From positions 12,023 through 76,022 of the forward strand of contig DAOSLF010000002.1 of assembly GCA_035368605.1 (NCBI GenBank): a DNA stretch of 64,000 nucleotides, read 5' to 3'. Below are positions 893 to 57,087 of this stretch, piece after piece. The notes below the pieces were generated by a model that was not told the origin of the DNA, did not search any database, and was given only the letters and a program-made list of their open reading frames with translations. Origin of the DNA: Candidatus Omnitrophota bacterium (GTDB lineage Bacteria; Omnitrophota; Omnitrophia; Omnitrophales; Aquincolibacteriaceae). Within the stretch, counting starts at the first letter, position 1, and each line of letters starts with the position of its first letter. The position numbers and the translations under genes were made by a program.

Positions 893-896
893 GATC

Positions 897-6716: not shown

Positions 6717-6777
6717 CGGATTAAGATTCTTCGTCCTGCGGCCGCGGAATGACGCGCCGCACCAAAAAGGAGTTTTT

Positions 6778-9672: not shown

Positions 9673-9734
9673 GCCCGGAATTAAAATCGGGGTCACACCC
9701 CGAATTTATTCACCGCCGAAATCTCCGCAAAGCA

Positions 9735-9773
9735 AAAAAGGCCGGGCGCCTGATAAGGGCACCCGGCCTTTTT
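9735..9773. terminator. Bidirectional rho-independent terminator between nuoN and the convergent - strand ORF
   Basis: AAAAAA, then GGCCGGGCGCC (9740-9750), an 8-nt loop, GGCACCCGGCC (9758-9768) and TTTTT. A tract on one side and T tract on the other, with one C/A mismatch in the stem. Confidence 0.6.
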
Positions 9774-9786
9774 ACCCAAACTTCTC

Positions 9787-25021: not shown

Positions 25022-25023
25022 GG

Positions 25024-38671: not shown

Positions 38672-39704
38672 CTAATTGTTGGACCGCTTCAAAGACCTCA
38701 TCGGGCGTGATCCCGGAAAGCCAGCCATCCCCGGGGAGGTCCTTGCCGAAGAACGGGATCGAATAACCCGGCGGGACATACTGCAGGACGATCGATTCGC
38801 CGACACCGCGCGGTCCGGTAAGATCGGGGTCCGTGGGACCGAAGATCGCGGCCACGCGCGCCCCGACACCGGAAGCGATATGCATCGGCCCGGAATCCCC
38901 CGTCACAAGACATGTCGCGTGTTTGTAAATACAGGCGGAGACCCGGAGCGGCGTCTTTCCGACCAGATCGATCACGCGCAATTCGTCAGCCCCGGGCGCT
39001 CCCAGGCGGCGAAGTGATTTCAGAAAATCCATGAAAAGGGTTCGGTCCCCCGCGGAACCCGTCACCACAATCGGGATCTTCCACTTCGCGTGAACCATGG
39101 AGGCAAGTACCGCAAAATGCTCCACCGGCCAGCGTTTTGGCTTCCAGTTCGCTCCAAGATGGAAACAGACATACCGCGCGCCGTCCGTGAGCCCGTTCTG
39201 CCGGAGGACCTCGCGGGCCTCCCGGTCGTCTCCGGGTGTGAAATAAAAGCGGGACTTCGGCTCGATGGGCGTTTCATAACCGGCGCCCTTCATGAGGGTC
39301 ATAAAGTAGTCCAGCTGATGGAGCTTCCCGTCCGGCTCCCGGACCGCCGTCGTGAGGAAAAGGCTCCGCCCTTTTCCGTAGCCGGTGCGTTTTTTCACCC
39401 CCGCGAGACAAAGCATGACAGCCCGCGAACGGGAACGGTGGAAAAGATAACCTTCATCCCAGGGGCCGAGTTTCCGGAGCCGGAAAACGAAACCAGCCCG
39501 GGAGAACCAGGAGCGATGCGTGGATTTTTCGTCGAATGGAAGGAATCCGGCGACCGCCGGATGCGCTTCGAGAATCGCGCGGCAACGTTCCGGCGCGACG
39601 CAGAAAATCTCAGCCCCGGGATAGCGGCTCTTGATCACCTCAAGCGCCGGCATCTGGAAAAGCAGATCGCCGAGCCAGTTCTTCATCACGACAAGTATTT
39701 TCAC
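38643..39704 (-). CDS. Glycosyltransferase family 9 (heptosyltransferase-like), copy 4
   Basis: MKILVVMKNWLGDLLFQMPALEVIKSRYP. GTG start at 39702-39704. Confidence 0.85.
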   Translation of the reverse strand: MKILVVMKNWLGDLLFQMPALEVIKSRYPGAEIFCVAPERCRAILEAHPAVAGFLPFDEKSTHRSWFSRAGFVFRLRKLGPWDEGYLFHRSRSRAVMLCLAGVKKRTGYGKGRSLFLTTAVREPDGKLHQLDYFMTLMKGAGYETPIEPKSRFYFTPGDDREAREVLRQNGLTDGARYVCFHLGANWKPKRWPVEHFAVLASMVHAKWKIPIVVTGSAGDRTLFMDFLKSLRRLGAPGADELRVIDLVGKTPLRVSACIYKHATCLVTGDSGPMHIASGVGARVAAIFGPTDPDLTGPRGVGESIVLQYVPPGYSIPFFGKDLPGDGWLSGITPDEVFEAVQQLGAFPDGSGS

Positions 39705-39822
39705 ACTGTCAGAGATGCTTCAAGACATCTCTCCTCCGTTTTAAAACCGTTAAAATCTTTCTCAAACAAACCCGCCCGCAAGATCACGGCCCCGCCAAAG
39801 GCGTGACCTGACCCGAACGGGG

Positions 39823-41919
39823 TCATGCCTCAAGAAACCTTTTGGCGGTGTCAAAAACCTCATCCACCGAAATGTGGGCCAGGCATCCCATCGTCTCCTT
39901 TTCCTTGCAGACCCCGCTGTAGCAGGGCTGGCATGGGAGGTTCCGCATGAACACGGCGATCTTTTTCGCCGGCGGGACATGACGCTTCGGGTCCGTCGGG
40001 CCGAAGATCGCGGCGATCGGGACATGCATCGCGGCCGCGACATGGAGAAGGGCCGTGTCCCCGGAGACTACGAAATGCAGCTTTTGGAAGAACGCGGGCA
40101 GGTCCTCGATCCCGGTCTTCCCGATCAGGTTCACGACCCGGTCCGGGTCGAAGTCGCGGAATTCATTCGCAAGCTCCGCTTCGCCGGGCGAACCGAAAAG
40201 AAGAATCCGCGCGTCGTAGCGGTCAAAGATCCGTTCCGCGAGCTTCCGGTAATGCGCCGCCGGCCACCGCTTGGTCGGCCACTTGGGACTCGATCCCATC
40301 ACGAAACCGATGACCTTCGTATCGGCCTTGAGATCGAGCGAAAGAAGGACACGCTCCGCCTTTTCGACCTGCTCCTTGCCGGGCCAGAGCTCCAGCGTAT
40401 CATCATAGTCCTGGACTCCGGCCTTGGAGATCACCCGGAACTGGTGGCGGACCGGTTCTGCCGCGATCCGGAACGTCTTGTCGGGACGGTTCAGGAGTGA
40501 GCCCCAAAACCCGCGCGCGAACCCGTACCGCCGGATCGCGCCGCCGAGATACGCAAGGAGATACGTGTACTTGTTATTGTGAAGATCGACCGAAACGTCG
40601 AAGTTTTCCCGCCGCACGCGACGGGCTGTCTTCAGAAGATAGAGAGGGTTCGGAAACTTCTTCCGGTCGACCAGGATCATGTCGTCGAGGTAGGGGCAAT
40701 CCGCCATGATCCGCGAAAGCCGTTTATCGACGAGAAGCGTGATCGATGCGTCGGGGTACCGTTCCTTCAGCATCCGGAGGCTCGGCACCACAAGGACGAG
40801 GTCCCCCATCGCTCCCAGTTTGATTACGAGAATCTTTTTCTTCTTCCGGACCTCCTGGTAGACCTCGACGGTCTTCCGGACCATCTGCCCGAGCGCGAAC
40901 TTCTCCTCGATCTTCTTCCGCAGGGCAGTCGCGTATTCCCTTGCCTTTGCGCGATCCGTCAGCATCTCATACATGGCCTCCGCCATCGCGGTCACGCTTT
41001 TCGGCGGAAAGAGGAAACCGTTCACGCCGTGGTCGATGATGTCCGTGACACCCCCGAGCCACGTCGCGGCCACGGGCGTGCCGACCGCGCCGGCCTCGAT
41101 GATGACGCGACCGAAGGGTTCCGGAAGCGTGGAGGAGAGTACGAGCAGGTCGGACTGCGCGAGCAATCCCGGCACATCCCGTGACGGACCGGGCAGTTGA
41201 ACGCAGGACTCAAGGGCAAATTGCTGGATTGTCTTCCGGATCAGTTTCGTGTACTGGGTCCGGCCGCGGTTCTCGGCGCCGACCAGCCACACCTCGAAGT
41301 TCGGGAGGCGGCTCCGCAGGAGGTGGATCGCTTTCAGGAACTCGACCTGCCCCTTGTTCGGCGAGAAACGACCGACATGGATGATCCGGAATTTCCGGGG
41401 TTTTTCGTCGAAACGCTTGAGGGAAAAATGAAACTGGGAAAGATCGACGCCCCGCGGGATCAGGCGAATGCGGTCCTGGGGGACGCCGAACTCGTCGATC
41501 ATCCGCCGGCCGATCGCATTGGAAACAACGATCACGCGTTTCCCATACCCCATGACAAAGCTGAGCGGCTGCAGCGAATAATAGCCGTGACAGGTCGTGA
41601 CAAAGGGAACGCCGGTCTTCCGCGACGCGAGCCAGCCGATCCACCCCGGGACACGGCTGCGCGCGTGGATAATGTCGATCCGTTCGCGTTCGATGATCTT
41701 CACGATCTGGTCCACGAGGAGCAATGACGCGAGCGATTTCTGATGCACGGGAAGGCCGTAATGCGGGACGCCCATGCGGTGGAGTTCCGACACAAGCGAA
41801 CCGCCGGAAGAAACGACGACCGCTTCGTGCCCTTCTTTTTTCAGCGCGCGGGCGAGGTCCACCACCCCGCGTTCGACGCCTCCGACTTCAAGACTCGGCA
41901 ACAACTGGAGGATCTTCAT
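39823..41919 (-). CDS. Bifunctional glycosyltransferase: N-terminal GT4 domain fused to a C-terminal GT9 heptosyltransferase-like domain
   Basis: 698 aa. The N-terminus (MKILQLLPSLEVGGVERGVVDLARAL, ending in EAGAVGTPVAATWLGG) is GT4. Residues ~380-698 (KKILVIKLGAMGDLVLVVPSLRMLKERYP...) are GT9. Confidence 0.8.
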   Translation of the reverse strand: MKILQLLPSLEVGGVERGVVDLARALKKEGHEAVVVSSGGSLVSELHRMGVPHYGLPVHQKSLASLLLVDQIVKIIERERIDIIHARSRVPGWIGWLASRKTGVPFVTTCHGYYSLQPLSFVMGYGKRVIVVSNAIGRRMIDEFGVPQDRIRLIPRGVDLSQFHFSLKRFDEKPRKFRIIHVGRFSPNKGQVEFLKAIHLLRSRLPNFEVWLVGAENRGRTQYTKLIRKTIQQFALESCVQLPGPSRDVPGLLAQSDLLVLSSTLPEPFGRVIIEAGAVGTPVAATWLGGVTDIIDHGVNGFLFPPKSVTAMAEAMYEMLTDRAKAREYATALRKKIEEKFALGQMVRKTVEVYQEVRKKKKILVIKLGAMGDLVLVVPSLRMLKERYPDASITLLVDKRLSRIMADCPYLDDMILVDRKKFPNPLYLLKTARRVRRENFDVSVDLHNNKYTYLLAYLGGAIRRYGFARGFWGSLLNRPDKTFRIAAEPVRHQFRVISKAGVQDYDDTLELWPGKEQVEKAERVLLSLDLKADTKVIGFVMGSSPKWPTKRWPAAHYRKLAERIFDRYDARILLFGSPGEAELANEFRDFDPDRVVNLIGKTGIEDLPAFFQKLHFVVSGDTALLHVAAAMHVPIAAIFGPTDPKRHVPPAKKIAVFMRNLPCQPCYSGVCKEKETMGCLAHISVDEVFDTAKRFLEA

Positions 41920-42019
41920 CTGTTCAGAGACACGTCAGCGCATCTCTCCTCTTTTTTGAACGGCCGGTATTTTCAAGCAACATAAATCCTGCGGCGGTCC
42001 TGCGGACGGCAGGACCTGT

Positions 42020-43969
42020 TTATAACAATTCGCCCAGTTTCTGCAACAGGGCATTCTTTTCCCGGTCGATCACCGGGGAGGCTGCCTTGTTCAGAAGTTC
42101 CGCGACGGTCCTCTCCAGGTCCTCGAGACAGCAAAGCGTGACGAGACCCCGCTGGCTCAGCGTCTGGTGAAAGCGGTAATGTTTCGCCGGAAGATCGCCT
42201 TGCCCCGCCACAAGCACGATGACCCTCTTTCCGCTTCCGACCGCCTCCGAGATCATCGCGAGGCTGTCCTCCGTCACGATGATGAGGTCCGCGAGCCCCA
42301 TCATCCCTCCCGCCGCATATGGCGGGTTCTCTTCGTTCGCGACCACAAGATAGCGGCACGCGGGGTCCCGGGAAAGCACGTTTTTCAGAAACTGTTCGAC
42401 GTTTTTGGTCGTCCGCCGCGACGTCGTCACCATGTATTCCAGACCGGAGCGGGACAGGCGCCGCAGGATCATCGCGATTTTTTCGGCGTCCGGGGCCATG
42501 ATGTCATACCCGCGTGTTTTGCCGCCGAGGAAGACCGCGATCCGGATCCGGGAGATATCCCCCACCTTCGCCTTGAGGGCCGCAATGTCACCGGAACGGT
42601 CCACGGCCCGATAGCCGCTCGGCATAATCACGGACCGGAAAGTCCTTTTCGGGACCGGCCCCTCGTCGTGCGCGGGGACAACCGCAAGATCGTAAGGCAT
42701 CAGGGCATACGGGAACGGCGGCTTCATGATAACGACCGTCTTCGCGCCGGTCTCCCTCGCAAGAAGCTGCTGAACCGGGGCAAGACTCGATCCCGCGGTC
42801 ACGATGAAATCCGCGCGGGCGTTCTCGATCGCCCGGTAACTTTCCTCCGTAAGGAACGGCGCGAGCCAGTTCAGCCTCCCCTGGATCCACGGTCTCATCA
42901 GCGGGGCCAGCGCAAAAAGCAGGCTCCGATGACCCGCGGAACGGTATTCGATATGGGCTTTCACAGTCTCGAACTCCAGACCGGGACGGTCGTGGAACTC
43001 CGTGAGCGAGCTCATCATCCCGGCGACAACATCGGACTGCTTGAAGTGCCCGGCCTTGCCGTCCGAGAGGATCAGGATCCTCCGCGACCAGCTGTACTTC
43101 CACCGCTTGTTCTCCCAGAGCCACTGGCCGGGATATTTCGAAATAAACTCCTCGAGCGAGGCCAGGTACTGCCGCGCGACGGACTCGATGCGCTCTTCGT
43201 TCGTGGCGGACGGATCGTCCCTGAGGACATCCCCGACGAAGATCTCATGCCGGGCATGTTCCACCCGGACCATGTAGCACGGCATCAGAAGCGAGCCGGT
43301 CCTCACGGCAAGCTCGAAGGCCCCCGTCGGGACCGATGTTTTTATGCCGAAGAAAGGAAGGATGATCCCTTCCGTTTTCCCCGCCGACTGGTCGGCGAGC
43401 ACGCCGATCAGTTTACCTTCCTTGAGGGCCCGTACAAGACTGCGGATACCCGCGCCGCGGCTGACCGCGACCGAACCGTGCGTTTCCCGGAGCTTGTTCA
43501 AGAGCTCGTTCAACCTCGGGTATTTCTGGTCGCGCGCAAGCACATGGATCGGTGTTCCCCGGAGCCCGGCGACAACCTGCAAAAGTTCCCAGTTCCCGAA
43601 GTGTCCCGTCAGGAGCACGCCCCCCTTGCCGGATTTCGCCAACGCCTCGAACTTTTCGAGACCGTGAATCCGGATGTTCTGCCCGATATGCGCCGGTGTC
43701 AGTTTCGGAAAGCTCATGATCTCGACGATGTTTTGGGCCATGAGTCCGTAGTGATCGCGCACGGCCTTCCACCGGGCGCGCGGGGTCAAACGCTCACCGA
43801 GCGCGTTTCGGAGGTTCACGTAAGCAACGCGCCGTTTCCCGGAAAGATAAAAAACGCCTTTTCCGAACGCGTCACCGATCCGGAGGCTGGTCGCGAGAGG
43901 AAGGCGCGCGAAGCAGGCGATCAGGACGCGGGCGATCCCGTAAGCGATCAGATCGAGGGCTTTTTCCAT
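42020..43969 (-). CDS. Fusion protein: N-terminal LpxL/HtrB-family lipid A acyltransferase plus a C-terminal ELM1/GtrOC1-like (PF06258-type) putative glycosyltransferase domain
   Basis: 649 aa. Residues 1-300 carry the GHFGNWELLQVVAG acyltransferase motif; residues ~300-649 resemble the DUF1022/ELM1 family. The ELM1 call is from recall. Confidence 0.7.
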   Translation of the reverse strand: MEKALDLIAYGIARVLIACFARLPLATSLRIGDAFGKGVFYLSGKRRVAYVNLRNALGERLTPRARWKAVRDHYGLMAQNIVEIMSFPKLTPAHIGQNIRIHGLEKFEALAKSGKGGVLLTGHFGNWELLQVVAGLRGTPIHVLARDQKYPRLNELLNKLRETHGSVAVSRGAGIRSLVRALKEGKLIGVLADQSAGKTEGIILPFFGIKTSVPTGAFELAVRTGSLLMPCYMVRVEHARHEIFVGDVLRDDPSATNEERIESVARQYLASLEEFISKYPGQWLWENKRWKYSWSRRILILSDGKAGHFKQSDVVAGMMSSLTEFHDRPGLEFETVKAHIEYRSAGHRSLLFALAPLMRPWIQGRLNWLAPFLTEESYRAIENARADFIVTAGSSLAPVQQLLARETGAKTVVIMKPPFPYALMPYDLAVVPAHDEGPVPKRTFRSVIMPSGYRAVDRSGDIAALKAKVGDISRIRIAVFLGGKTRGYDIMAPDAEKIAMILRRLSRSGLEYMVTTSRRTTKNVEQFLKNVLSRDPACRYLVVANEENPPYAAGGMMGLADLIIVTEDSLAMISEAVGSGKRVIVLVAGQGDLPAKHYRFHQTLSQRGLVTLCCLEDLERTVAELLNKAASPVIDREKNALLQKLGELL

Positions 43970-45015
43970 TATCGTTTGATCCCCAGGAGCCGCAGCAGAC
44001 GGTCGGTCAGGATTTCTTCTCCCGAACGGACCCGGATGCGCGCCGCGAGCACGAGCGGGTTCAGAACCCTGGAGATCAGATCCCGCGAACGGTAAAAATC
44101 TTTCTCGGTGGTAATCACTTCCTCCACTCCCGCGGAACGGCTGATCTCCCTGATCTCGGCGAGCTCGTTCTCGATGTATTCGTGATGATCGAGGAACTCG
44201 AAATTGCGGACGGTCTTGACGCTTGCGCGCTGGAGTACCAGCTGGAAGGATCGCGGCGTCCCGACGGCCGCGAACGTCGCTACCTTTTTGCTCTGAAGCT
44301 TGTCGAGCGACATACGGGCGCGGTTCCTCGCCCGATAAAAAAAGAGCGGCTCCATGTAAGCTTCCACGAACTGCGCCTGCGGCGAGAACTTCTGGATCTT
44401 CGCGCGAATCGCCTTCAGGGTATCCGAGGCTACGAGGTTCACGTGCGTGAGAACAACGATATGGGCCTTTTTCAGGACAGACAGCGGCTCACGGAGAATT
44501 CCCCTTGGGATGAGCTTTTCATTACCGAACGGGTTGAGCGAATTCACCACGACGATCTCGCAGTCGCGTTCGACCGAGGTATGCTGGAGCCCGTCATCGA
44601 GGATCGCGATATCGATCGGCTTTTCCTTATGGAGCCGGAGCGCCGCGGCGGCGCGGTCCTTGCCGACCCCGATCACCACGGTGGGCATATGGTGCCGGAA
44701 CTCCTCGACCTCATCGTGATTATAACCGCGGGTCAGGATCAAGGGGGTCTTGCGGATCGACGCGATCTTCCGCGCGATGAACTCCACAAGCGGCGTCTTG
44801 CCGGTGCCGCCCCACGTGAGATTGCCGACGCTTATGACCGGGAACGGCAGTTTCGCGCGTTTGAGAATCCGGCTCTCATGACCCCACCGGGAAAGGCGGG
44901 CGCCCGCCCCGTAAAAAAGGGACGCGAAACCGAGGATCGGGCCGAGGGCCCGCGACGCCGCGTCATGACATTTTCCCTCCGCAACCAGCCGAAAATAGTT
45001 TTTCAGATTTTCCAT
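43969..45015 (-). CDS. lpxK: Tetraacyldisaccharide 4'-kinase
   Basis: 348 aa with a P-loop (VISVGNLTWGGTGKTPLVEF). Confidence 0.85.
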   Translation of the reverse strand: MENLKNYFRLVAEGKCHDAASRALGPILGFASLFYGAGARLSRWGHESRILKRAKLPFPVISVGNLTWGGTGKTPLVEFIARKIASIRKTPLILTRGYNHDEVEEFRHHMPTVVIGVGKDRAAAALRLHKEKPIDIAILDDGLQHTSVERDCEIVVVNSLNPFGNEKLIPRGILREPLSVLKKAHIVVLTHVNLVASDTLKAIRAKIQKFSPQAQFVEAYMEPLFFYRARNRARMSLDKLQSKKVATFAAVGTPRSFQLVLQRASVKTVRNFEFLDHHEYIENELAEIREISRSAGVEEVITTEKDFYRSRDLISRVLNPLVLAARIRVRSGEEILTDRLLRLLGIKR

Positions 45016-46333
45016 CGACCTTGGTCCTTTCTATCCCCCTCCGGGCCGCGAGAAAGGTCAGGACCCATCCGGCCTGACGTTTGCTCGCCCCCCGAAGGCG
45101 GCTGACGATCTGGTTCGCTTTGATGCCCGCCTCGCGGCGCAGGGCCGGATCCGACAGGAACTTCTCTGACAATGCCGTTAGGTCCCCCGGTTCCCGAACA
45201 AGAAAAGCCCCGCCGCCCCGATCGAGCTCGCGGTAGATCAAGTTAAAATTAAAAACATGCGGCCCGTGCATCACGGCCCGATCGAAGCGCGCGGCCTCGA
45301 CCGGATTTTGTCCGCCGTGCGGAATAAAGCTTCCGCCCATGAACACGAGATCCGCGGTCCGGTAAAGATATTTCAGTACTCCAAGCTGGTTAAGGATCAA
45401 AACATCAAAACTTCCCGCGACGGGCGCCGGCACCGAAAGCGCGGTGCGGCATCCGGCCGACGCAAGCTTTCCCGCAAGGTCTTCCGAACGCTCGATATGA
45501 CGCGGCGCGATGACCATCTTCAGCGCCGGGAACTTCACTTTGAGCTGTCGAAAAACCTCCGCGAGAATCTCCTCCTCACCGGGGTGCGTGCTGCCGGCCA
45601 CGAACACCGGATCTGTCATCCCGAACCCGAAGCGCTTCCTCAGTTCTTCCGGCGAGGGTCCGTCCTTCCCCTCCGCCGCCACCTGATCAAATTTCATGTT
45701 CCCCATCTCACGGACGGCTTCCCGGGGGACGCCGAGCGCCCGAAACCGGCCGGCATCTTCTTCCGTCTGAGCCAGGACAAAACCGATCCCGGCCCAGATA
45801 TTTTTCAGAAAAAATCCGGCCGCTCGGTAACGGCCGAAGGATTTTTCGGAAAGACGCCCGTTCACGATCCCGACAGGGATATTCCGCCGTTTCGCCTCGC
45901 TCAAAAGGTTCGGCCAGACCTCCGTTTCGGCAAGCAGCACGGCCTCCGGACAAATCGTGTCAAAACACCTCCGCACCGCGAACGTCAGATCGAACGGAAA
46001 ATATCCGACGCGGACCCGCCGGCCCGCGAGCTTCTGCGCGATCTTCTGCCCCGTCGGGGTTACCGTTGTCAGAACGATATCAAGGCGCGGGTCCTGTTCC
46101 AGGAGTTCCGTGACGAACCTTTCGACGGCGTTCACTTCCCCCACGCTCACCGCGTGGAGCCACACCGTCCGTTGCCCTTCCGTTCGGACCTTCCAGGAAT
46201 CCGGGAGACGCCCCCACCGTTCGCGCCAGAGCCGATCGGGATCGTCCGCGAGCTTGATTTTCACGAGAAAGACGGGAAGATAAAAGATCCCGAAGACCGC
46301 GAACGCCAGATTGTAGAAAATCGAGCTTAACAT
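44963..46333 (-). CDS. waaA: 3-deoxy-D-manno-octulosonic acid (Kdo) transferase
   Basis: 456 aa. WLHAVSVGEVNAVERFV and overall KdtA/WaaA similarity. Overlaps lpxK by 53 nt. Confidence 0.85.
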   Translation of the reverse strand: MLSSIFYNLAFAVFGIFYLPVFLVKIKLADDPDRLWRERWGRLPDSWKVRTEGQRTVWLHAVSVGEVNAVERFVTELLEQDPRLDIVLTTVTPTGQKIAQKLAGRRVRVGYFPFDLTFAVRRCFDTICPEAVLLAETEVWPNLLSEAKRRNIPVGIVNGRLSEKSFGRYRAAGFFLKNIWAGIGFVLAQTEEDAGRFRALGVPREAVREMGNMKFDQVAAEGKDGPSPEELRKRFGFGMTDPVFVAGSTHPGEEEILAEVFRQLKVKFPALKMVIAPRHIERSEDLAGKLASAGCRTALSVPAPVAGSFDVLILNQLGVLKYLYRTADLVFMGGSFIPHGGQNPVEAARFDRAVMHGPHVFNFNLIYRELDRGGGAFLVREPGDLTALSEKFLSDPALRREAGIKANQIVSRLRGASKRQAGWVLTFLAARRGIERTKVDGKSEKLFSAGCGGKMS

Positions 46334-46424: not shown

Positions 46425-47303
46425 TTACGCCCTCGGGTGCGCCGCCGTGTAGGCATCCTTCAAACGCTGCGTCGTCACATGCGTATAGATCTGCGTCGTT
46501 GAGAGACTCGCGTGGCCGAGGAGTTCCTGTACGCTCCTCAGGTCCGCGCCGCGGTCCAGCATGTGAGTCGCGAACGAATGGCGGAACATGTGGGGCGACA
46601 CTTCTTTTCCGAGTCCCGTCCGTTTCACATATTTCAGGATCATGCGCCGGACGCTCCGGTCCGTCAGCCGTCCGCCGAGGCGGCTCACAAAAAGCGGTTT
46701 CTTGAACGCGGGCGCGAGATCCTTCGGCGGTTTTTCATCCAGATAGCTTTTGAGACAATTCAGCGCAACCTGCCCGACCGGGACGATTCTCTCTTTTTTC
46801 CCCTTGCCGCGGACCCGCAGAACGCCGCCGAAAAGATCGCAGTCGTCGTGGTTCAGCCCGACCAGCTCACTCACGCGAAGCCCCGAACTATAAAGCATCT
46901 CGAGAATCGACTTGTCCCGTTTCTCCTCCCACGTCGGCTTGTTGGGGGCATCCAGGAGCTTCGTAACCTCGTCGGGATTCAGAAAATCGGGAAGGCGCTT
47001 CTCCTTCCTGGGGGTCGAGATTCCCACGGCGGGGTTCTGGGTCATGACGTTCTCGCGGGCAAGATATTTGAAAAAAGACCGGAGACAGGCCAATTTCCTC
47101 GCGACGGAGCTTTTGCTGTAATCGCGTGATTTCAGAAAAGAAAGAAAGGCGCGGATATCAATGTAGGTGACATCCTTCAGAGGTTTCTCCCCGAGGAACT
47201 TCCGGAACTCGCGGAGGTCGATCGAATAATTCTTCGTCGTGTGTATCGACGCGCCTTTTTCGGTAATCAGGAACTGCAAAAAATCATCGACTTCTTTTTC
47301 CAT
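46425..47303 (-). CDS. xerC: Tyrosine recombinase XerC/XerD family
   Basis: 292 aa with an N-terminal SAM-like domain and C-terminal catalytic residues (HMFRHSFATHML, LLGHASLSTTQIYTHV). Confidence 0.85.
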   Translation of the reverse strand: MEKEVDDFLQFLITEKGASIHTTKNYSIDLREFRKFLGEKPLKDVTYIDIRAFLSFLKSRDYSKSSVARKLACLRSFFKYLARENVMTQNPAVGISTPRKEKRLPDFLNPDEVTKLLDAPNKPTWEEKRDKSILEMLYSSGLRVSELVGLNHDDCDLFGGVLRVRGKGKKERIVPVGQVALNCLKSYLDEKPPKDLAPAFKKPLFVSRLGGRLTDRSVRRMILKYVKRTGLGKEVSPHMFRHSFATHMLDRGADLRSVQELLGHASLSTTQIYTHVTTQRLKDAYTAAHPRA

Positions 47304-47422
47304 CCCTTGCCCCTTGCCCCGTCACGGACCCGCGGGCCGGACCCAAGGTCTGTCCGCACTCCGCGATTCTCATTCTGGATCGATCCGGGTTCACGCCGCA
47401 CTGCCGACGCATTCCCGTTCCT

Positions 47423-49543
47423 TTACTGGGGTGAAGCTTCAGGCGCTCCGGCCGGCGAAGGGTTCTCCCCTTCCTTGTCCTCTTTTTTGGGGAGGCTCGC
47501 CGTCGTGTAGGTGCACTTGGGATAATTCGAGCAGCCGTAGAAAGCGCGGCGGCCTTTGGCCTTGCGCTTCACCAGTTCCCCGCCGCAGCCCGACTCGGGA
47601 CAATAGAATCCGGTCGGAATCGAACGGGTGTATTTGCATTCCGGAAAACCGGAACAGGCGAGAAACTGCCCGAACCGGCCGAACTTTATCAGGAGCTGTT
47701 TCCCGCACAGACCGCATTTATGGTCCGTGGGGATCGGCTCCCTTTTGAAACTTTTCATCTCTTCCCTGGCTTTCTCAAGCAGGGCACTGAACGGTCCGTT
47801 GAAATCCCGCAGGACCTGTTTCCATTCCATCTTGCCTTCTTCGATCTCGTCGAATTCCTCTTCCATGAACGCCGTAAATTCCGTCTCGAGCACCTTCGGG
47901 AAATGCTGCACAAGGAGGTCGGTCACGATCTCACCAAGCTCCGTCGGGATCAGCGCCCCGCTTTTCTTTTCGCAATAATCGCGGTCCAGCAGGGTCGAGA
48001 TCGTCGGCGCGTAGGTGCTCGGCCGTCCGATCCCTTTTTCCTCGAGCATACGGACAAGGCTCGCGTCGTTGAAACGCGCCGGCGGTTTCGTGAAATGCTG
48101 ATCACCCGCGAGCTCATGAAGTTTCAACTTCTGTCCGACCCGCAAGTCGGGCACTTCCACCGCCTCGGGCTCTTCTTCCCCGTTTTTCGCGGTATCCCTT
48201 TCTGTCCTGATCTCGCCGAACGCGGCCGTGAACCCCGGGAACAGGTTCTTTGTCCCGCTCGTCTTGAACCAGTATTTGTCCCCCGCAAGGATCGCAACCG
48301 ACGTGACTTCGTCCACGGCGGGGACCATCTGCGATGCGACAAATTTCCGCCAGATCAACTCATAGAGTTTCAGTTCATCTTCGGCGAGATACGCCTTCAC
48401 GAGCTCCGGCGTACGGTACACGGATGTGGGACGCACCGCCTCGTGCGCTTCCTGGGCCCCCTTGCGGGACTTGTAGACCGGCGGCGCATCGGGGAGATAA
48501 TCCGCCCCGAATTTTTCCTTGATGAACTGGATGGCCTCCTGCTGGGCGGCCGCGGCGACATTCACGGAATCCGTGCGCATGTAGGTAATCAGACCCACGC
48601 TCCCCTCCTCGCCAAGCTCAATACCTTCATAGAGCCGCTGGGCGATGCGCATCGTGTTTGCGGAGGAGAATCCGATGCGGGTGTACGATTCCTGCTGCAG
48701 CTTGCTCGTCGTGTAGGGCGCCTGGGGCTTGCGGCGTTTCTCGGTCTTGTCGATTCTGGAGACCTCAAACGGAAGATTTATCAGCTCCTGCTTGATCGCT
48801 TCGGTGGCCTGGAGGTCCACCAGAACGGGTTTTTCGGACCCGATCCTGTCGAGCCGCGAAAGGAAGATTTTATCCTGCGCCTCTTCGGGGGAAAGACGCG
48901 CGTCGAGCGTCCAGTATTCCTGCGGAACGAACTTCCGGATCTCGCGTTCGCGGTCCACAATAAAACGGAGCGCCACGGATTGCACCCGTCCCGCACTGAG
49001 CCCCTTGCCAACCTTCTTCCAGAGAAGCGGACTAAGCTGATAGCCGACAATCCGGTCCAGGATGCGTCGGGCCTGCTGCGCGTTCACGAGGTTGATGTCG
49101 ATATCACGGGGATGTTCGAACGCGCGCAGTACGGCCTCCTTCGTGATCTCATGGAATTCGACGCGTTGTATCCGGAGGTCCTTGTTCGCTTCGCGGAAAA
49201 CATACGCCAAATGCCAGCTGATGGCCTCCCCCTCCCGGTCAGGGTCGGTCGCAAGATACACGGAGACTTTGCCCGCGGCGGAGGCCTTGAGGTGTTTGGC
49301 CGTCTTGATATTCTTCGGAGAAATGATGTACTCGGGCGTGAAATCGTTCGCGAGGTCCACACCCATCCGGCTCTTGGGAAGGTCCCGGACGTGGCCCATG
49401 GAGGCTTCAACCTGGTAATCCTTGCCGAGGAATTTATTGATGGTCCTGGCTTTGGCGGGAGATTCGACGATGACGAGATGTCTCGCGCTCGATATCCTGG
49501 CGGATTCCTTCTTTTTACCTGACGCCTTCTTCACTTTTGCCAC
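47423..49543 (-). CDS. topA: DNA topoisomerase I with C-terminal zinc ribbons
   Basis: 706 aa. Toprim N-terminus (LVIVESPAKARTINKFLGKDY), an active-site Tyr region, and three C-terminal C4 zinc-ribbon motifs. GTG start. Confidence 0.95.
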   Translation of the reverse strand: MAKVKKASGKKKESARISSARHLVIVESPAKARTINKFLGKDYQVEASMGHVRDLPKSRMGVDLANDFTPEYIISPKNIKTAKHLKASAAGKVSVYLATDPDREGEAISWHLAYVFREANKDLRIQRVEFHEITKEAVLRAFEHPRDIDINLVNAQQARRILDRIVGYQLSPLLWKKVGKGLSAGRVQSVALRFIVDREREIRKFVPQEYWTLDARLSPEEAQDKIFLSRLDRIGSEKPVLVDLQATEAIKQELINLPFEVSRIDKTEKRRKPQAPYTTSKLQQESYTRIGFSSANTMRIAQRLYEGIELGEEGSVGLITYMRTDSVNVAAAAQQEAIQFIKEKFGADYLPDAPPVYKSRKGAQEAHEAVRPTSVYRTPELVKAYLAEDELKLYELIWRKFVASQMVPAVDEVTSVAILAGDKYWFKTSGTKNLFPGFTAAFGEIRTERDTAKNGEEEPEAVEVPDLRVGQKLKLHELAGDQHFTKPPARFNDASLVRMLEEKGIGRPSTYAPTISTLLDRDYCEKKSGALIPTELGEIVTDLLVQHFPKVLETEFTAFMEEEFDEIEEGKMEWKQVLRDFNGPFSALLEKAREEMKSFKREPIPTDHKCGLCGKQLLIKFGRFGQFLACSGFPECKYTRSIPTGFYCPESGCGGELVKRKAKGRRAFYGCSNYPKCTYTTASLPKKEDKEGENPSPAGAPEASPQ

Positions 49544-50882: not shown

Positions 50883-52100
50883 TCATTTAGTCATAAAATA
50901 CCTGCCGTCCGGAGTTTTCCGGATCCGCCCCCCAAGCTCCAGCATAAACAGCAGCGTCGCGACCCTTGCCGCATCCAGTCCCGTCATTTCAAGAATCTCA
51001 TCAACCGTCATGCCGCTCTCCTCACGCAGGGCTTCGAGCAGGATCGCCGACTCCTCATCCTTCTCTTCTCCCGGGAGTGTCTCTTCATTGACGACCACCG
51101 ACGCTTCCTCCTCCTTGTTTACCGGCACGGGTTGTATCGGTACACCGGTAGCGGATTCCTCGGCCGTGGCGCTCACGAAAGATTCGGGAGGAGCAACGGA
51201 CCGCCAGCGGTCAGCAAGGGCTTCAAAGATCTCCTCCGGGCTTTCGATCAAGGCCGCTCCCTCCCTGATCAGTTGATGGGTGCCGCGCGACGTCAGCTGA
51301 TCGACCGGCCCCGGGAGCGCGAACACCTCCCTGCCCTGGTCGAGCGCCTCGTGGGCGGTAATCAGCGAACCGCTCCGCGAATGGGCTTCGATCACAAGCA
51401 CGCCGTGACTGAGCCCGGAGATGATCCGGTTCCGCCTCGGGAAATTTTCAGCAAGCGGCGGGGTCCCGAGCGGATATTCGCTGATCAGCGCCCCCCGCTC
51501 CGTGATCTTCCCGGACAGTTTTTCATTCTCTTTGGGATAGACAACATCGATACCGCATCCAAGCACCGCGATCGTCCTGCCGTAGGGAATCCCGAGGGCC
51601 GCCTCGTGCGCCGCCTGGTCAACGCCGCGGGCGAGACCGGAGATGATCGTGATCCCTTTCGCGGCAAGCTCTCCCGAAAAACGCCTGGCTTGCGTTCTGC
51701 CATAAAAACTCGGATGCCGCGTCCCGACCACCGCAACGGCATTGGCATCACCGGTCTCAAGCATCCCTTTCATGTAAAAAAGAAGCGGAGGATCGGGGAT
51801 CTCCTTCAACGCGGCCGGGTACTCCGCGTCGAGGACTGTGCATAACGCGACCCCTTCCCTCCGGCACTCATCGAGCTCCTTTAACGGATCGAACGGCTCT
51901 TTCGTTCCCTCCTCATTCAGGACTTCGAGGACCTCGCCGGGATATTGTCCTTCGCGTAAAAGCTCCACCGCCCGCCGCCTTTCCCGGATCCCAAGGCGAT
52001 TTAAAACAAGCATGGAGGCAAGGTCCCGGTCGGACATGGAGTTCATAGATGATATCCTGCCGGTCGTCTTTCCCGGAGGTTCCCCGGGTCTGCGGAACAA
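50883..52100 (-). CDS. dprA: DNA processing protein DprA (Smf)
   Basis: Rossmann-like DprA core (VAVVGTRHPSFYGRTQARRFSGELAAKGITIISGLARGVDQAAHEAAL) plus a C-terminal winged helix. Alternative start at the internal MNSMSDRD (52046). Adjacent to topA, as in many bacteria. Confidence 0.85.
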   Translation of the reverse strand: MFRRPGEPPGKTTGRISSMNSMSDRDLASMLVLNRLGIRERRRAVELLREGQYPGEVLEVLNEEGTKEPFDPLKELDECRREGVALCTVLDAEYPAALKEIPDPPLLFYMKGMLETGDANAVAVVGTRHPSFYGRTQARRFSGELAAKGITIISGLARGVDQAAHEAALGIPYGRTIAVLGCGIDVVYPKENEKLSGKITERGALISEYPLGTPPLAENFPRRNRIISGLSHGVLVIEAHSRSGSLITAHEALDQGREVFALPGPVDQLTSRGTHQLIREGAALIESPEEIFEALADRWRSVAPPESFVSATAEESATGVPIQPVPVNKEEEASVVVNEETLPGEEKDEESAILLEALREESGMTVDEILEMTGLDAARVATLLFMLELGGRIRKTPDGRYFMTK

Positions 52101-52285: not shown

Positions 52286-53383
52286 TTATCGGGCGCCGAA
52301 AAGGCGGAGAATATTGCGGAGTTCGCCGGCAGAGATACCGGTCTTGATCGTAACCTTGCCGATCCGTTCGGGGAGAACGAAGCGGAGACGGCCCCCCGCT
52401 TTCTTTTTGTCCCGCATCATGGCCTTCAGGACCGTCGCGGACCGGATCTTCAGGTTGTCAACGGCAACGGGCAGGCCGAGCCTCTTTAAAAGCGCGAGCT
52501 GGCGTCTCACAAATTCCGGCGAGCATATCCCGATCTCGGCGGCAAGGTGCGCCGCCATCGCCATGCCGATCCCAATCGCTTCGCCGTGAACGATTTTTCT
52601 GTATTTTGCCGCGTTCTCGATCCCGTGACCGAATGTATGCCCGTAGTTCAGGATCATTCGTTCACCCTTCGTCTCGTATTCGTCCCGGCTCACGACACCG
52701 GCCTTGATACACGCGGAGTCGGTTACAATCCGCTCAAGCGCCGCCGCGTTCTTTTCAAGAATCCTCCCCGCGTTCCTTTCGAGGAACCGGAACAGCCGCG
52801 CGTCGCGGATCACGCCGTATTTCACAACTTCCGCGAGCGACGCGCAAAGTTCTTTCGCGGGAAGCGAATCCAGGACACCGACATCGGAGATCACAAGCGC
52901 CGGGGGATGGAACGCGCCCATCAGGTTCTTCCCTTCGGGAAGGTTGATCCCCGTCTTGCCGCCAATCGAACTGTCGACCTGGGCAAGCAAGGTTGTCGCG
53001 ACATTCACATAACGGATCCCGCGAAGATACACGGAGGCCGCGAAACCGGAAAGATCGCTGACGACACCTCCGCCGACCGCGACAATGCCGTCCTTTCGTT
53101 CAAAACCTTTCGCGAGCAGCACGTGGAGCAGCCGGAAAAGCTCTTTTCCGGATTTGGCGCGCTCCCCGTCAGGCAGGGTGTGGAAAGAGACCTTGAACCC
53201 TTTTCGGGTGATCGCTTCCGCGACCGTTCGCGCGTAACGGCTTATTCCGGTCTGGGAGACCACCAGAATCCGGGCGCCCGGCCGGAAGAGCCCGGAAAGC
53301 AGGCTCCCGCTCCGGGCAAGAATCCCTTTCCCGACCACGATCTTATAGGCGCCTTTGATGCTTTTGACAGGAATGGTCTTCAT
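52286..53383 (-). CDS. aroB: 3-dehydroquinate synthase
   Basis: 365 aa. GGGVVSDLSGFAASVYLRGIRYVNVATTLLAQVDSSIGGKTGIN. Confidence 0.9.
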   Translation of the reverse strand: MKTIPVKSIKGAYKIVVGKGILARSGSLLSGLFRPGARILVVSQTGISRYARTVAEAITRKGFKVSFHTLPDGERAKSGKELFRLLHVLLAKGFERKDGIVAVGGGVVSDLSGFAASVYLRGIRYVNVATTLLAQVDSSIGGKTGINLPEGKNLMGAFHPPALVISDVGVLDSLPAKELCASLAEVVKYGVIRDARLFRFLERNAGRILEKNAAALERIVTDSACIKAGVVSRDEYETKGERMILNYGHTFGHGIENAAKYRKIVHGEAIGIGMAMAAHLAAEIGICSPEFVRRQLALLKRLGLPVAVDNLKIRSATVLKAMMRDKKKAGGRLRFVLPERIGKVTIKTGISAGELRNILRLFGAR

Positions 53384-53387: not shown

Positions 53388-53888
53388 TTATTTCATCAAT
53401 GCCTTGATCTGTTGAGCAGTCGCTTCCGCGGTCAGGCCGTCCGTCATCACCGCGTGATCGCAGGTTGCGCGATAGCGGGCCTTCCGCACCTCATAAATCC
53501 CTTCGAGGGCGTCCATGGGATCCGGCGTGTTGAGAAGCGGCCGATCCCGGTTCCGGCATACCCGTTCCCACAAAACCGGAAGCGTCGCCTCGAGCAGGAT
53601 GATCTTTCCCGTCCTCTTCATGAGATCCACATTCTCGTCCCGCAAGATAATCCCGCCGCCCGTCGCGAAAACGCGCCGGGCTTCGGCCGAGATTTTTTTC
53701 AGGACCGCCGTTTCCACATCCCGGAAATACGACTCACCGTCCGTCGCGAAGATCTCAACGATCGGCCGCCCCTCCTGTTTCTCGATCTCGGAGTCGATGT
53801 CCGTAAACTGATACCCGGTCAGGGCCGCCAGAGCCTTCCCGGTCACGCTCTTTCCCGACCCCATCATCCCCGTAAGATAGATGTTCAT
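53388..53888 (-). CDS. aroK: Shikimate kinase
   Basis: MNIYLTGMMGSGKSVTGKALAALTGYQFTDIDSEIE. Start at the internal ATG (53886-53888), 14 nt after the aroC stop. Confidence 0.8.
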   Translation of the reverse strand: MNIYLTGMMGSGKSVTGKALAALTGYQFTDIDSEIEKQEGRPIVEIFATDGESYFRDVETAVLKKISAEARRVFATGGGIILRDENVDLMKRTGKIILLEATLPVLWERVCRNRDRPLLNTPDPMDALEGIYEVRKARYRATCDHAVMTDGLTAEATAQQIKALMK

Positions 53889-53902
53889 CGCTCTCCCGCT
53901 TC

Positions 53903-55021
53903 TCAGCCGCGAATTTGCCTCCGGTACCCGTCGTAATTCCGCCGGATCTCCCGCATGGAATCTCCGCCGAATTTTTCGAGGAAGGCGTCCGCGAGCACAT
54001 ACGCCACGAGCGCCTCGCCGATCACGCTGCCCGCCGGAACCGCGCAAAAATCACTGCGTTCGAAATCCGCCTTTTCGGTCCGCTTTGTGCGCATGTTAAC
54101 CGAGGCGAGCGGGCGAGCGAGGGTCGCGATCGGTTTCATCGTCACCCGGACCACCACATCCTCCCCGTTCGTCATGCCGCCTTCGATACCACCCGCGCGG
54201 TTCGTCCGGTGATAATAGCCGCGGGATTTTGAATAAAAGATCTCATCGTGGGCCCCGGAACCGTAGAGGGACCCGAGACGGTCCCCCTCGCCGATCTCCA
54301 CGGCCTTCACGGATTGTTTACTCATCAGCATTCCCGCGAGTCGTCCATCGAGTTTTCTCGCGTGATGGACACAGGAACCCAGCCCGGCCGGAAGTCCCGC
54401 CGCGCGGACCTCGTATTTTCCGCCGACCGTATCCGATTGTTTCCGGGCCTTCTCGATCACCCGGATCATGGCCCGGGCCGTTTTCGGACAAACACAGTTG
54501 ACGGGCGAATCTTTCGTGAGCGCCCGGATCTCTTTGACGGTCAGCGACCGCTCCGGGAGCGAGGCCGGGCCGATCCGAACCACGTGGGACGCGATCTCGA
54601 TCCCGAATTCACGGAGAAACAATTTGCAGGCGGCGCCGGCCGCGACACGCATCGAGGTCTCGCGCGCGCTCGAGCGTTCGAGGATCGCGCGGATGCTCTG
54701 GTGATACTTGAGCGCCCCGGCGAGGTCCGCGTGTCCCGGCCTCGGCCGTTCGAGGTCCGGCAACGCGTCCACCGTATTGTCCCTGTTCTTGAGAATCAGC
54801 CCGAGCGGCGCCCCCGTCGTCTTGCCCCGGATCACGCCCCCCATGATCTCGACACAGTCGGTCTCGATCTTTTGCCGCCCGCCGCGCCCGAAGCCTCCCT
54901 GGCGCCGGCGCAGTTCGGCGTTCACGAAATCAAGGTCGAACGCAAGACCGCTCGGCAATCCCTCGAGGATCGTCGCAAGGTACTTTCCATGTGATTCTCC
55001 GGTCGTGATGTAATTCAGCAT
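53903..55021 (-). CDS. aroC: Chorismate synthase
   Basis: 372 aa. MLNYITTGESHGKYLATILEGLPSGL and overall AroC similarity. Confidence 0.95.
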   Translation of the reverse strand: MLNYITTGESHGKYLATILEGLPSGLAFDLDFVNAELRRRQGGFGRGGRQKIETDCVEIMGGVIRGKTTGAPLGLILKNRDNTVDALPDLERPRPGHADLAGALKYHQSIRAILERSSARETSMRVAAGAACKLFLREFGIEIASHVVRIGPASLPERSLTVKEIRALTKDSPVNCVCPKTARAMIRVIEKARKQSDTVGGKYEVRAAGLPAGLGSCVHHARKLDGRLAGMLMSKQSVKAVEIGEGDRLGSLYGSGAHDEIFYSKSRGYYHRTNRAGGIEGGMTNGEDVVVRVTMKPIATLARPLASVNMRTKRTEKADFERSDFCAVPAGSVIGEALVAYVLADAFLEKFGGDSMREIRRNYDGYRRQIRG

Positions 55022-55024: not shown

Positions 55025-56185
55025 TCAGACTCCGTATAGTGTTGAAAAAAGGTCCAGAATCTCCGGCCCCGCGAAATAGAAAATGACCGCCATCACGGCC
55101 AGGAAAGGACCATACGGGATCGTTTCCTGTTTTTTCGCGAACCGGCAAAAAAGCGCGTACGGCAATGCGATAAAAGGCGCAAACATGAAAACAAGGACCG
55201 TCAGCCAAGGCCCGAGAAACGTCCCGATCATCGCCATCAGGCACAGGTCGCCGAACCCCATCGCCTCGCGCGAAAGGACCATCGCCTCGGCTCTCCCCTC
55301 AATCACGCCCGCGTCCGCAAGCGCGTGTTCCTTGCCGGCGACACGGAAGCTTTTTTCGGAGATCTCGACCTCTACGTCCTTGAAATTCCCGCCCGCGAAC
55401 CTCAACGTCGCGGCGCGAAAAACGATCCGGTCCGAAGACCGGTTAAAGATATCGTCCCACGCGATCGAGCTGCAGGACGGATCCAGATATTGCCCGCGCG
55501 TCAGAGTGTCCGCCAGGCGCTGAAAAAAACCGGAAACTCCGCCGGCGCGCGACGCGAGAGGGGCCCCAGGCTGGTCGATCAGCAAACGGTTGTCCTTGAT
55601 AGTAATGACGGTCCCCGGGGCCAGACGGACTTTCCGTTTTCCAAAGAGCAGTTTCCCCAGTTCCGCAACGGCAAAAATGGTCGCGGCGCCCGTCACAAGA
55701 CCGAGCACGCTCGCGAGCAACTTATGATACCACAAGCCCTGAGGCACCAGGCGCGCGTTCACAACGCTCACGCAGACCCCGAAGATCATCCCCGTCCACG
55801 TGACGCCATGAGGGATGAATCCCGTTTCCAGGTCCGTCAGCGTCACCACGATCATCATCGACACAAAGACCGCGGCGATCGCGAACGCCGCCGAAAGACC
55901 GCAGCTCCGCCAGATCAGGAGCCAGCTCACGGCGTTCAGAAGTTCCACGAAAAAATACCGGAACGAAATGGGACGCCTGCAGCGGAAGCACTTGCCGCGG
56001 AGAATGAGATAGCTCAGGAGCGGAATATTCTCGTACCACGGGATCGGGATCTTGCATTTCGGACAGAACGACCCCGGCCAAACGATCGAAAGCTCCCGCG
56101 GCATCCGGTGAATGCAAACATTCAGAAAACTCCCCGCGATCGCGCCGAACACGAAGATGATAACGGGGTAGAACATTTCAATCAT
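55025..56185 (-). CDS. pilD: Type IV prepilin peptidase (A24 family, PilD-like) with a ~110-aa insertion in a cytoplasmic loop
   Basis: N-terminal Zn-finger (CPKC...CFRC), TM helices, and the catalytic-loop context ELGKLLFGK ... EAMGFGDLCLMAM. The two motifs are separated by ~110 extra residues; total length is 386 aa versus a typical 250-290. Confidence 0.85.
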   Translation of the reverse strand: MIEMFYPVIIFVFGAIAGSFLNVCIHRMPRELSIVWPGSFCPKCKIPIPWYENIPLLSYLILRGKCFRCRRPISFRYFFVELLNAVSWLLIWRSCGLSAAFAIAAVFVSMMIVVTLTDLETGFIPHGVTWTGMIFGVCVSVVNARLVPQGLWYHKLLASVLGLVTGAATIFAVAELGKLLFGKRKVRLAPGTVITIKDNRLLIDQPGAPLASRAGGVSGFFQRLADTLTRGQYLDPSCSSIAWDDIFNRSSDRIVFRAATLRFAGGNFKDVEVEISEKSFRVAGKEHALADAGVIEGRAEAMVLSREAMGFGDLCLMAMIGTFLGPWLTVLVFMFAPFIALPYALFCRFAKKQETIPYGPFLAVMAVIFYFAGPEILDLFSTLYGV

Positions 56186-57087
56186 GGCTTGCCTTTTGTC
56201 CTGAGCGCCTCGAGGAGCGCGTTACGCATCACACTCACCGGAGCCTTTCCCCCGGTCCAGCATTCGAACGCCCGAACGCCCTGATAAAAAAGCATCCCGA
56301 GACCGTTCAGGGTCCGGTGACCGCGTTTCCGGGCCAACGCGAGAAAACGGGTCTCGGCCGGATTATAGATCAGGTCCATGAAAAGCTTCGGGCCGGCGTC
56401 CGCCTTCGGGATCCACTCCGAAGGGACGGCCATCGGGTCCGTTTTCTTGAGACCGAGCGGCGTGGCATTCACAACAAGATCAGCCTTCCCGATCAGTTCG
56501 CGGATGCGAAGGTCCCCCGACCGGAGGGCCTCAAAAGCGGTCCCGCGGAATACCCGCCCCAGATCGCGGGCGATCTTTTCCGCTTTCTCGGGGAACATGT
56601 CCACCACCGTGACCGCACGGGCTTTTTTCCTGGAAAGACCGTAGACGACCGCCCGCGACGCCCCTCCCGCACCAAGGATGACCGCGCGCTTCCCTTCCGG
56701 CCGATACTTCCCTTCCCTGCCCAACGAGAGCAGGAACCCTTCCATATCGGTGTTCGCGCCGAACCAGCGCGTGCCTTTTTGATAGACCGTGTTGACCGCG
56801 CCGATCTCCCGGGCCTCGCGTGAAATACCGTCAAGGTATTTCAGCACGGTCTCTTTATACGGCACCGTGACATTGAAACCGGAAAGGAGGGAACGTCTGA
56901 GACCGCGCATTGCCTCACGGAATCCCGCGGCATCCTGTTCGAGGACAATATAGTTCGCATCGATCCCGAGGGCGCGAAATCCGGCTTCATGCATGTGGGG
57001 GGAAAGGGTGTGTTCGAGGGGGTAACCGAAGATCCCGAAAAGCCTGAATCCCGTATGACGTTTCACCGATCTCATCGAGCGCTCCAA
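56182..57087 (-). CDS. aroE: Shikimate dehydrogenase
   Basis: 301 aa. FGIFGYPLEHTLSPHMHEAGFRALGIDANY and an NADP-binding GAGGASRAV motif. Confidence 0.85.
   Translation of the reverse strand: MERSMRSVKRHTGFRLFGIFGYPLEHTLSPHMHEAGFRALGIDANYIVLEQDAAGFREAMRGLRRSLLSGFNVTVPYKETVLKYLDGISREAREIGAVNTVYQKGTRWFGANTDMEGFLLSLGREGKYRPEGKRAVILGAGGASRAVVYGLSRKKARAVTVVDMFPEKAEKIARDLGRVFRGTAFEALRSGDLRIRELIGKADLVVNATPLGLKKTDPMAVPSEWIPKADAGPKLFMDLIYNPAETRFLALARKRGHRTLNGLGMLFYQGVRAFECWTGGKAPVSVMRNALLEALRTKGKP

Follow-up and report, generated by a model that had tools for sequence, protein, structure and literature searches.

The prepilin peptidases are the maturation enzymes that type IV pili, type II secretion systems and competence pseudopili have in common. 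In a 64,000-nucleotide (nt) stretch of DNA from a Candidatus Omnitrophota bacterium (contig DAOSLF010000002.1; called the window below, with all positions counted from its first letter), a pilD-like gene for such an enzyme lies in the middle of a cluster of shikimate pathway (aro) genes, and its 386-amino-acid (aa) product carries a long additional segment directly before the second of its two catalytic aspartates. This raises the question of what the segment is, whether it is peculiar to this gene, and what it might do so close to an active site. As set out below, we conclude with high confidence that the window protein is a long-form prepilin peptidase with a conserved domain.

A folded domain precedes the second catalytic aspartate

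An earlier, sequence-only reading of this DNA had proposed an A24 prepilin peptidase, and the Pfam domains, the catalytic aspartates and the four cysteines confirm it. A protein search yielded 2900 homologues at E<=1e-5, which their sources name prepilin peptidase; NCBIfam gave zero matches for the whole protein at E<=0.01. When 74 long forms were aligned, C41, C44, C66, C69, D118, G310, G312 and D313 showed no variation, and D118 and G310-F-G-D313 were invariant also in a 16-sequence alignment of short and long relatives. In PilD of Pseudomonas aeruginosa the CXXC-X21-CXXC motif binds zinc and is required for N-methylation (PMC3584216), and the spacing of the four cysteines in the window protein is identical to the one reported there. 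Judged by its sequence, the window protein possesses every testable feature of peptidase family A24A, and the enzyme looks functional, its catalytic and zinc apparatus being intact.

The additional segment was located in two ways. Using Pfam, the Peptidase_A24 core was recognised in the whole protein (39.6 bits, against a curated cutoff of 26.5), with the match split into two stretches. When the two halves were scanned apart, profile positions 2-62 fell on residues 106-173 and positions 63-104 on residues 304-345, so that the neighbouring positions 62 and 63 are ~130 residues apart in the window protein, whereas they are contiguous in its closest relatives of 262-263 aa; in one of the short relatives (P0006) the profile is matched in one piece, by residues 106-222. 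Alignment of short and long relatives likewise delimits the extra segment, from ~R184 to S305, flanked by LGKLLFGK and REAMGFGD, at a site that in short forms comprises no more than two or three residues. Both results establish the insertion as genuine and place it directly before the GxGD aspartate. The sequence-only reading had put its size at ~110 residues, which is slightly low: the window protein exceeds its closest relatives by 123-124 aa, giving an insertion of ~120 aa.

A model of the whole protein, generated using AlphaFold2 with the 74-sequence long-form alignment, has a mean predicted local distance difference test score (pLDDT) of 90.6 and a predicted template modelling score of 0.84. 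Long helices are predicted at residues 2-30, 75-95, 99-121, 126-139, 152-181, 311-324, 326-349 and 358-384. Within the insert the model has eight strands (184-197, 200-204, 240-242, 254-263, 266-275, 279-282, 285-288 and 295-304) and two one-turn helices, which bears out the beta-rich character first suspected from the letters alone. The same secondary structure was obtained when the insert was modelled by itself (pLDDT 81.6). The insert is made up of a conserved beta-rich domain of ~88 residues and a 33-residue sub-insert; pLDDT is at least 88 throughout, except in the sub-insert, where it is 67-79. The sub-insert, which ends in LDPSC, is found only in the window protein and in P0002, P0003 and P0004 (381-386 aa, 51-54% identical to the window protein), and is a gap in all Verrucomicrobiota-type long forms in the alignment.

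Conservation in the insert extends well beyond its general shape. R249 and D252 are invariant in the 74 aligned long forms, and W243, F247, S251, A258, L261, V273, E277 and L289 are conserved in at least 90% of them. The long forms have the motifs FGKRKVxLxxGT, WxDLFxRxSDRIxFxAAxL and IExxTDxxxIPREAMGxGD in common, of which the window protein retains W243, F247, R249, S251, D252, R253 and REAMGFGD, with serine in place of P305. Because it aligns across Omnitrophota-type and Verrucomicrobiota proteins, contains invariant residues and is modelled with confidence by AlphaFold2, the extra segment is a folded, conserved domain rather than a variable loop. It is not a normal loop of close homologues, since the closest of these (71-72% core identity) are without the segment and distant ones have the conserved domain.

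Could the segment instead be an artefact or a selfish element, that is, an assembly chimera, an intein or a mobile insertion? Errors do happen at this locus, as seen in P0059 (318 aa, from a 23-kb ENA contig, 99% identical), in which the C-terminal part of aroE runs on into ~120 residues from the start of the peptidase, the ends being divergent. The gene call, whose counterpart in the window is at ~55830-56700, most likely reflects frameshift errors in that assembly and not a real fusion. For the insert itself, however, the identical 386-aa protein was found independently (P0001, comprising 8 sequences from 2 contigs), hundreds of genomes have homologous inserts, and the reading frame is continuous, with unremarkable GC content across the gene. 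Neither splice-junction residues nor endonuclease motifs were found in the alignments, in which the junctions read FGK/RKV and LSR/EAM, and the Hint/intein family gave zero Pfam matches in the whole protein and in 38 insert sequences. An artefact or selfish element is therefore exceedingly improbable.

The domain is widespread in Verrucomicrobiota

We searched 1.84 billion representative proteins at E<=1e-3 with a profile of the insert that included the window insert itself, and matched 191 clusters. Leaving aside gene fragments and a single repeat-protein false positive (P0259), the matches lie at about residues 180-300 of prepilin peptidases of 355-500 aa, the long-form relatives P0003 and P0048 being retrieved at ~E 5e-30. 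As the matches, artefacts aside, fall in such proteins only, the domain appears to be specific to prepilin peptidases. Variants of its architecture were seen along the way. Two proteins, P0122 (458 aa) and P0137 (500 aa), have tandem copies of the insert domain between transmembrane helix 5 (TM5) and GxGD, and the beta2-beta3 loop that holds the 33-residue sub-insert in the window protein has other sub-inserts elsewhere: in P0123 the segment is helical and basic, and in P0143 it is a spacer rich in Pro and Ala.

A second scan, which covered one genome per species and used the C-terminal part of the insert together with GxGD as its query, found the domain encoded in at least 421 species-level genomes. 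Almost all of the best 80 of these are titled Verrucomicrobiota, including Prosthecobacter, Luteolibacter, Haloferula, Rubritalea, Akkermansiaceae, Chthoniobacter, Pedosphaera and Limisphaerales. The insertion is thus not peculiar to the window gene, and by title its carriers are mostly Verrucomicrobiota. Several metagenome-assembled genome records that represent species carry other titles (Klebsiella for L017, L030, L042 and L059, Proteobacteria for L054 and L065, Sulfotelmatobacter for L046), yet encode a long peptidase of Verrucomicrobiota type, often with aroE upstream; they are probably mislabelled or contaminated bins, and the same caution may apply to the two records titled Akkermansia muciniphila. 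In the open-access literature, to which the search was limited, we found no description of the insert domain or of the aroE-pilD linkage. The long-form prepilin peptidases, typified by the Verrucomicrobiota enzymes, therefore apparently constitute a subfamily without a formal description.

Long and short forms alternate among close relatives

The best 120 of the 2900 homologues fall into two length classes, of 259-265 and 349-404 aa; where NCBI names are given, several of the short class are Candidatus Omnitrophota and several of the long class Verrucomicrobiota. Core identities, computed without the insert and its immediate flanks, do not follow this division. The window protein is closest to the short proteins P0005 (72%) and P0006 (71%), followed by the long, Omnitrophota-type P0002 (58%) and the long forms of Verrucomicrobiota (mean 42%). 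Over the insert, its identity is 43% to P0002 and 39% on average to the Verrucomicrobiota inserts. In a neighbour-joining tree of the core (~240 columns, 100 bootstraps), a distance tree and as such weak for the history of the insert, the window protein grouped with the short P0005 and P0006 in 90 of the 100 bootstraps, and the four long Omnitrophota-type proteins were monophyletic in none.

On this tree, the long form appears to be rare and polyphyletic within the Omnitrophota-type clade, and its scattered presence would therefore imply repeated loss or transfer. We favour the first. Because core and insert have diverged alike (42% versus 39% identity) and the sub-insert is common to four proteins, the insert seems likely to be ancestral to the Omnitrophota-Verrucomicrobiota peptidase lineage and to have been cleanly lost several times; alternatively, the pattern could stem from movement of the segment from one lineage to another. 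The domain is presumably dispensable for catalysis, as it is missing from close relatives with the same gene surroundings.

A possible module at the active-site entrance

What, then, might the insert do? The sequence-only reading had suggested that it could be regulatory or could dock a substrate or partner. We read the sidedness of the membrane helices from the distribution of lysine and arginine. As its flanks are rich in these residues (FGKRKVR ... SRE) and it falls on the side of the membrane that also has the four-Cys loop, a cytoplasmic element of PilD (PMC3584216), the insert is probably cytoplasmic as well, and would therefore sit where the basic prepilin leader and the active site meet. 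In standard catalysis, D118 and D313 would cleave the leader of class III signal peptides at the cytoplasmic face of the membrane, and the zinc-bound CXXC-X21-CXXC domain would support N-methylation. The loop from TM5 to GxGD, a few residues long in canonical enzymes, would here carry the ~88-residue domain and its sub-insert at the entrance of the active site, the point at which the leader arrives. There it could tune which prepilin leaders reach the active site, or how they do so. Another possibility is that it tethers the peptidase to a partner within the pilus or secretion machinery, whether in the cytoplasm or in the inner membrane. An accessory cytoplasmic module with one of these roles, leader gating or selection or else partner tethering, is the reading we prefer, at a probability of roughly one half.

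A more specific version can be put forward tentatively, namely that the insert is a previously undescribed fold, confined to prepilin peptidases, that acts as a leader gate or selector or as a tether to the assembly platform. If so, Verrucomicrobiota and some Omnitrophota would have a regulated step of pilin and pseudopilin maturation that is absent from canonical PilD, and repeated loss of the insert would mark Omnitrophota lineages with a simplified pilin repertoire. The idea that an acidic insert serves as bait for basic leader peptides fits the Verrucomicrobiota (mean net charge -6.9), and was rejected for the window protein, where the charge is 0.

Several observations weigh against an accessory module. 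No ligand-binding or known interaction fold was recognised in the insert using Pfam, PDB sequences or Foldseek searches of PDB and BFVD. For Pfam, 38 insert sequences at E<=5 gave scattered single matches only, and no family; the insert profile found no relative among PDB sequences (best E 0.083); with Foldseek, the full-length model had nothing under E 0.16 in PDB, and the best match of the insert-only model was at E 0.19 in PDB (malectin, TM-score 0.22) and 0.077 in BFVD. Malectin and all the other fold matches were rejected as noise. A six-frame search of the 64 kb for the class III signal-peptide motif found no candidate pilin; its two matches lie inside unrelated open reading frames (ORFs) and were rejected as chance. 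The window insert has none of the net charge that is typical of Verrucomicrobiota inserts, and three residues that are near-invariant in long forms are replaced in the window protein (P305S, A297G and K315C), which could point to relaxed constraint. At the last of these positions, directly after GD, 97% of long forms have lysine and the window protein has cysteine (GDLCL versus GDVKL). In addition, the proposed placement of the domain relative to the active site follows from its adjacency to GxGD in the sequence, and repeated loss is expected of a nearly neutral decoration too. Separately, the relative P0002 was likewise seen to be without lysine after GxGD (GDLYF).

Such a decoration is the alternative that deserves most attention. 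In that case the insert would be a nearly neutral addition to a permissive loop, retained through inertia in Verrucomicrobiota and decaying or lost in the lineage of the window protein. Its polyphyletic presence among close relatives would be accounted for, as would a loop that accepts sub-inserts, a proline/alanine-rich spacer and tandem duplications, and a window protein with substitutions at three near-invariant positions and an insert that is no longer acidic. It is harder to reconcile with a domain kept in at least 421 species-level genomes, across a whole phylum where titles exist, or with polar residues that do not vary and a fold predicted with confidence, and the similar divergence of core and insert argues for purifying selection on the latter. 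We consider neutral decoration unlikely, although not remotely so.

The insert might, alternatively, be a sensor of a small molecule or second messenger (for example, a receptor of the cyclic di-GMP type) that works as an allosteric switch of prepilin processing. The domain adjoins the catalytic GxGD helix, its cytoplasmic position would suit such a role, and the polar residues described as invariant, R249, S251, D252 and E277, could build a binding site. The same residues could equally form structural salt bridges to the core, however, and the searches, whatever their threshold, revealed neither PilZ nor another known sensor family or fold: PilZ had zero Pfam matches at E<=5 in the 38 insert sequences and was absent from the 50 listed Foldseek matches in PDB, and the RxxxR...D/NxSxxG pattern was not found in the 74-sequence alignment. 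A sensor therefore seems doubtful, and the accessory module for leader access or tethering is the reading we carry forward.

The peptidase gene has an old place in the aro cluster

Turning to the genomic setting (Table 1), the gene order given by Pfam, aroE-pilD-aroC-aroK-aroB, bears out the earlier placement of the peptidase gene inside this cluster; dprA and an RDD-family gene follow, and leuA, ilvC, ilvN and ilvB lie upstream of aroE. Of the 4-nt overlaps that the sequence-only reading had seen on both sides of the gene, the one with aroE stands (ATGA), and the one with aroC does not: the TGA stop (55025-55027) and the aroC ATG at 55021 are separated by the 3 nt cac. The ORF listed for aroK (53388-54047, minus strand) begins at TTG, which would give it a 145-nt overlap with aroC; the true start is likely the ATG at 53888 (MNIYLTGMMGSGKS), 14 nt past the aroC stop.

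Table 1. Features of the peptidase gene, its product and the flanking aro genes, in window coordinates.
Feature	Position	Strand	Evidence
pilD-like gene; type IV prepilin peptidase/N-methyltransferase of 386 aa (peptidase family A24A), long form	55025..56185	-	ORF listing, Pfam, homologues, AlphaFold2
N-terminal A24_N_bact domain, residues 12-92	55910..56152	-	Pfam E 1.6e-31
Zinc site CXXC-X21-CXXC (C41, C44, C66, C69)	codons 55979-56065	-	within A24_N_bact; Cys invariant in long forms
First catalytic aspartate D118 (LTDLETG)	55832..55834	-	codon gac; invariant column in both alignments
GxGD motif G310-F-G-D313 with second catalytic aspartate	55247..55258	-	G310, G312, D313 invariant; codons read
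Inserted beta-rich domain, residues 184-304, between TM5 helix (152-181) and GxGD helix (311-324)	55274..55636	-	alignments, Pfam split, AlphaFold2
33-residue lineage-specific sub-insert, ~G207-S239, beta2-beta3 loop, predicted partly helical (217-228)	55469..55567	-	alignments, AlphaFold2
aroE (shikimate dehydrogenase)	56182..57087	-	Pfam Shikimate_dh_N, SDH_C; stop overlaps pilD start by 4 nt
aroC (chorismate synthase)	53903..55021	-	Pfam Chorismate_synt E 1.1e-105
aroK (shikimate kinase)	53388-53888, probable	-	Pfam SKI from residue 62 of listed ORF
aroB (3-dehydroquinate synthase)	52286-53383	-	Pfam DHQ_synthase, DHQS_C

This arrangement is conserved among relatives, in short and long forms alike. 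The block ilvBNC-leuA-aroE-pilD-aroC-aroK-aroB-dprA-RDD recurs around both the long P0002 and the short P0017, and in Verrucomicrobiota pilD has aroE as its immediate upstream neighbour at 37 of 80 loci, with aroC downstream in about five. Since short and long forms occupy the same position between aroE and aroC, the placement of pilD in the aro cluster is old and independent of the insert. Rather than a functional link, this suggests housekeeping co-expression. An association of aro and pilus genes is not in itself new, as pilus genes next to aroK-aroB have long been known in Proteobacteria (pilMNOPQ/hofMNOPQ-aroK-aroB).

The tight packing of the locus, with its overlap on the aroE side and its 3-nt gap to aroC, and the recurrent aroE-pilD adjacency in Verrucomicrobiota could be taken to mean that the insert docks flanking shikimate enzymes, such as AroE or AroC, at the membrane. 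Short genes with no insert, however, hold the same aroE-pilD-aroC-aroK-aroB-dprA position, and many long-form genes are not beside aroE or aroC. Such docking is very improbable and, together with the artefact and intein readings, effectively excluded.

Pfam scans of ~50 ORFs identified no type IV pilus or type II secretion genes in the 64-kb window, in agreement with the sequence-only reading. Instead, the window encodes NADH dehydrogenase subunits, enzymes of the S-adenosylmethionine cycle, genes for lipopolysaccharide (LPS) and lipid A, CTP synthase, topoisomerase I and a XerC/D-type recombinase. The dprA gene (50883-52100, minus strand) encodes the DNA-processing protein of natural transformation, and the RDD gene is followed by those for topoisomerase I and the XerC/D-type recombinase (46425-49543, minus strand); related contigs with long and with short peptidase genes have the order dprA-RDD-topoisomerase I-XerC/D in common. 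The proximity of a competence gene to a prepilin peptidase may or may not be meaningful. The nuo genes of the window lie at 897-9672, ~45 kb from the peptidase gene; in the Verrucomicrobiota loci L001 and L002 (positions 1-10214), aroE-pilD-aroC come directly after nuoJ-K-L-M-N. The LPS/lipid A cluster is large (35497-46333 and 24296-26840, both minus strand) and includes two fusions, a GT4-GT9 protein of 698 aa and a lipid A acyltransferase-ELM1-like protein of 649 aa, as well as three heptosyltransferase-family genes, lpxK, a Kdo (3-deoxy-D-manno-octulosonic acid) transferase gene, kdsB, and lptC/lptA-like and lptB-like genes.

Significance and comparison with known systems

For the window gene alone the result is modest: it is one rare, Omnitrophota-type member of a widespread, undescribed subfamily. 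The broader interest lies in a variant that is common in another phylum and apparently undescribed. In the Verrucomicrobiota genomes examined the domain is the rule. It has neither a family model nor a structural match, and its position before the catalytic GxGD helix offers a concrete handle on a possible control of substrate access or of partner coupling. In effect, nature has provided a deletion series of close relatives that share the genomic context and either have the domain or lack it, and these can be compared directly. This makes the variant useful and experimentally tractable, and it leaves our understanding of the system as a whole unchanged.

Compared with the bacterial enzymes of MEROPS family A24A (PilD of Pseudomonas aeruginosa, GspO/PulO and TcpJ/VcpD), the window protein is alike in its A24_N_bact domain, CXXC-X21-CXXC motif, two aspartates and GxGD, and the helix pattern predicted in its model would fit an enzyme with eight TM helices. 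What sets it apart are the ~120 extra residues before GxGD and the cysteine that takes the place of K315, and its gene belongs to an aro cluster, not to a group of pilBCD or gsp genes. A phmmer search of PDB sequences retrieved no prepilin peptidase structure, and no solved bacterial one was found by sequence or by fold in the PDB searches.

The nearest counterparts are the Verrucomicrobiota long forms (353-404 aa; P0081, P0102, P0114 and L001-L082), which have a homologous insert at the identical site, with shared motifs, and aroE upstream in about half of their loci. Unlike the window protein, they are without the 33-residue sub-insert, and their insert is acidic where that of the window protein is neutral. 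The core of the window protein, moreover, belongs to an Omnitrophota-type clade, unlike theirs.

The archaeal preflagellin peptidase FlaK, of the same superfamily, resembles the window protein in that its cytoplasmic side has an aqueous loop or domain. Its soluble domain reportedly consists of four beta strands and is said to follow the GxGD helix, not to precede it. FlaK was absent from the 50 listed of 86 Foldseek matches (E<=10) to the full-length model, all of those listed having E>0.1. As described in PMC3584216, which cites the crystal structure of Hu et al. 2011, FlaK belongs to the GxGD aspartyl membrane proteases, has a soluble part in the cytoplasm and, unlike the window protein, is without the four-Cys domain. 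The insertions of FlaK and of the long forms are thus most likely independent, and their likeness is one of principle rather than of descent.

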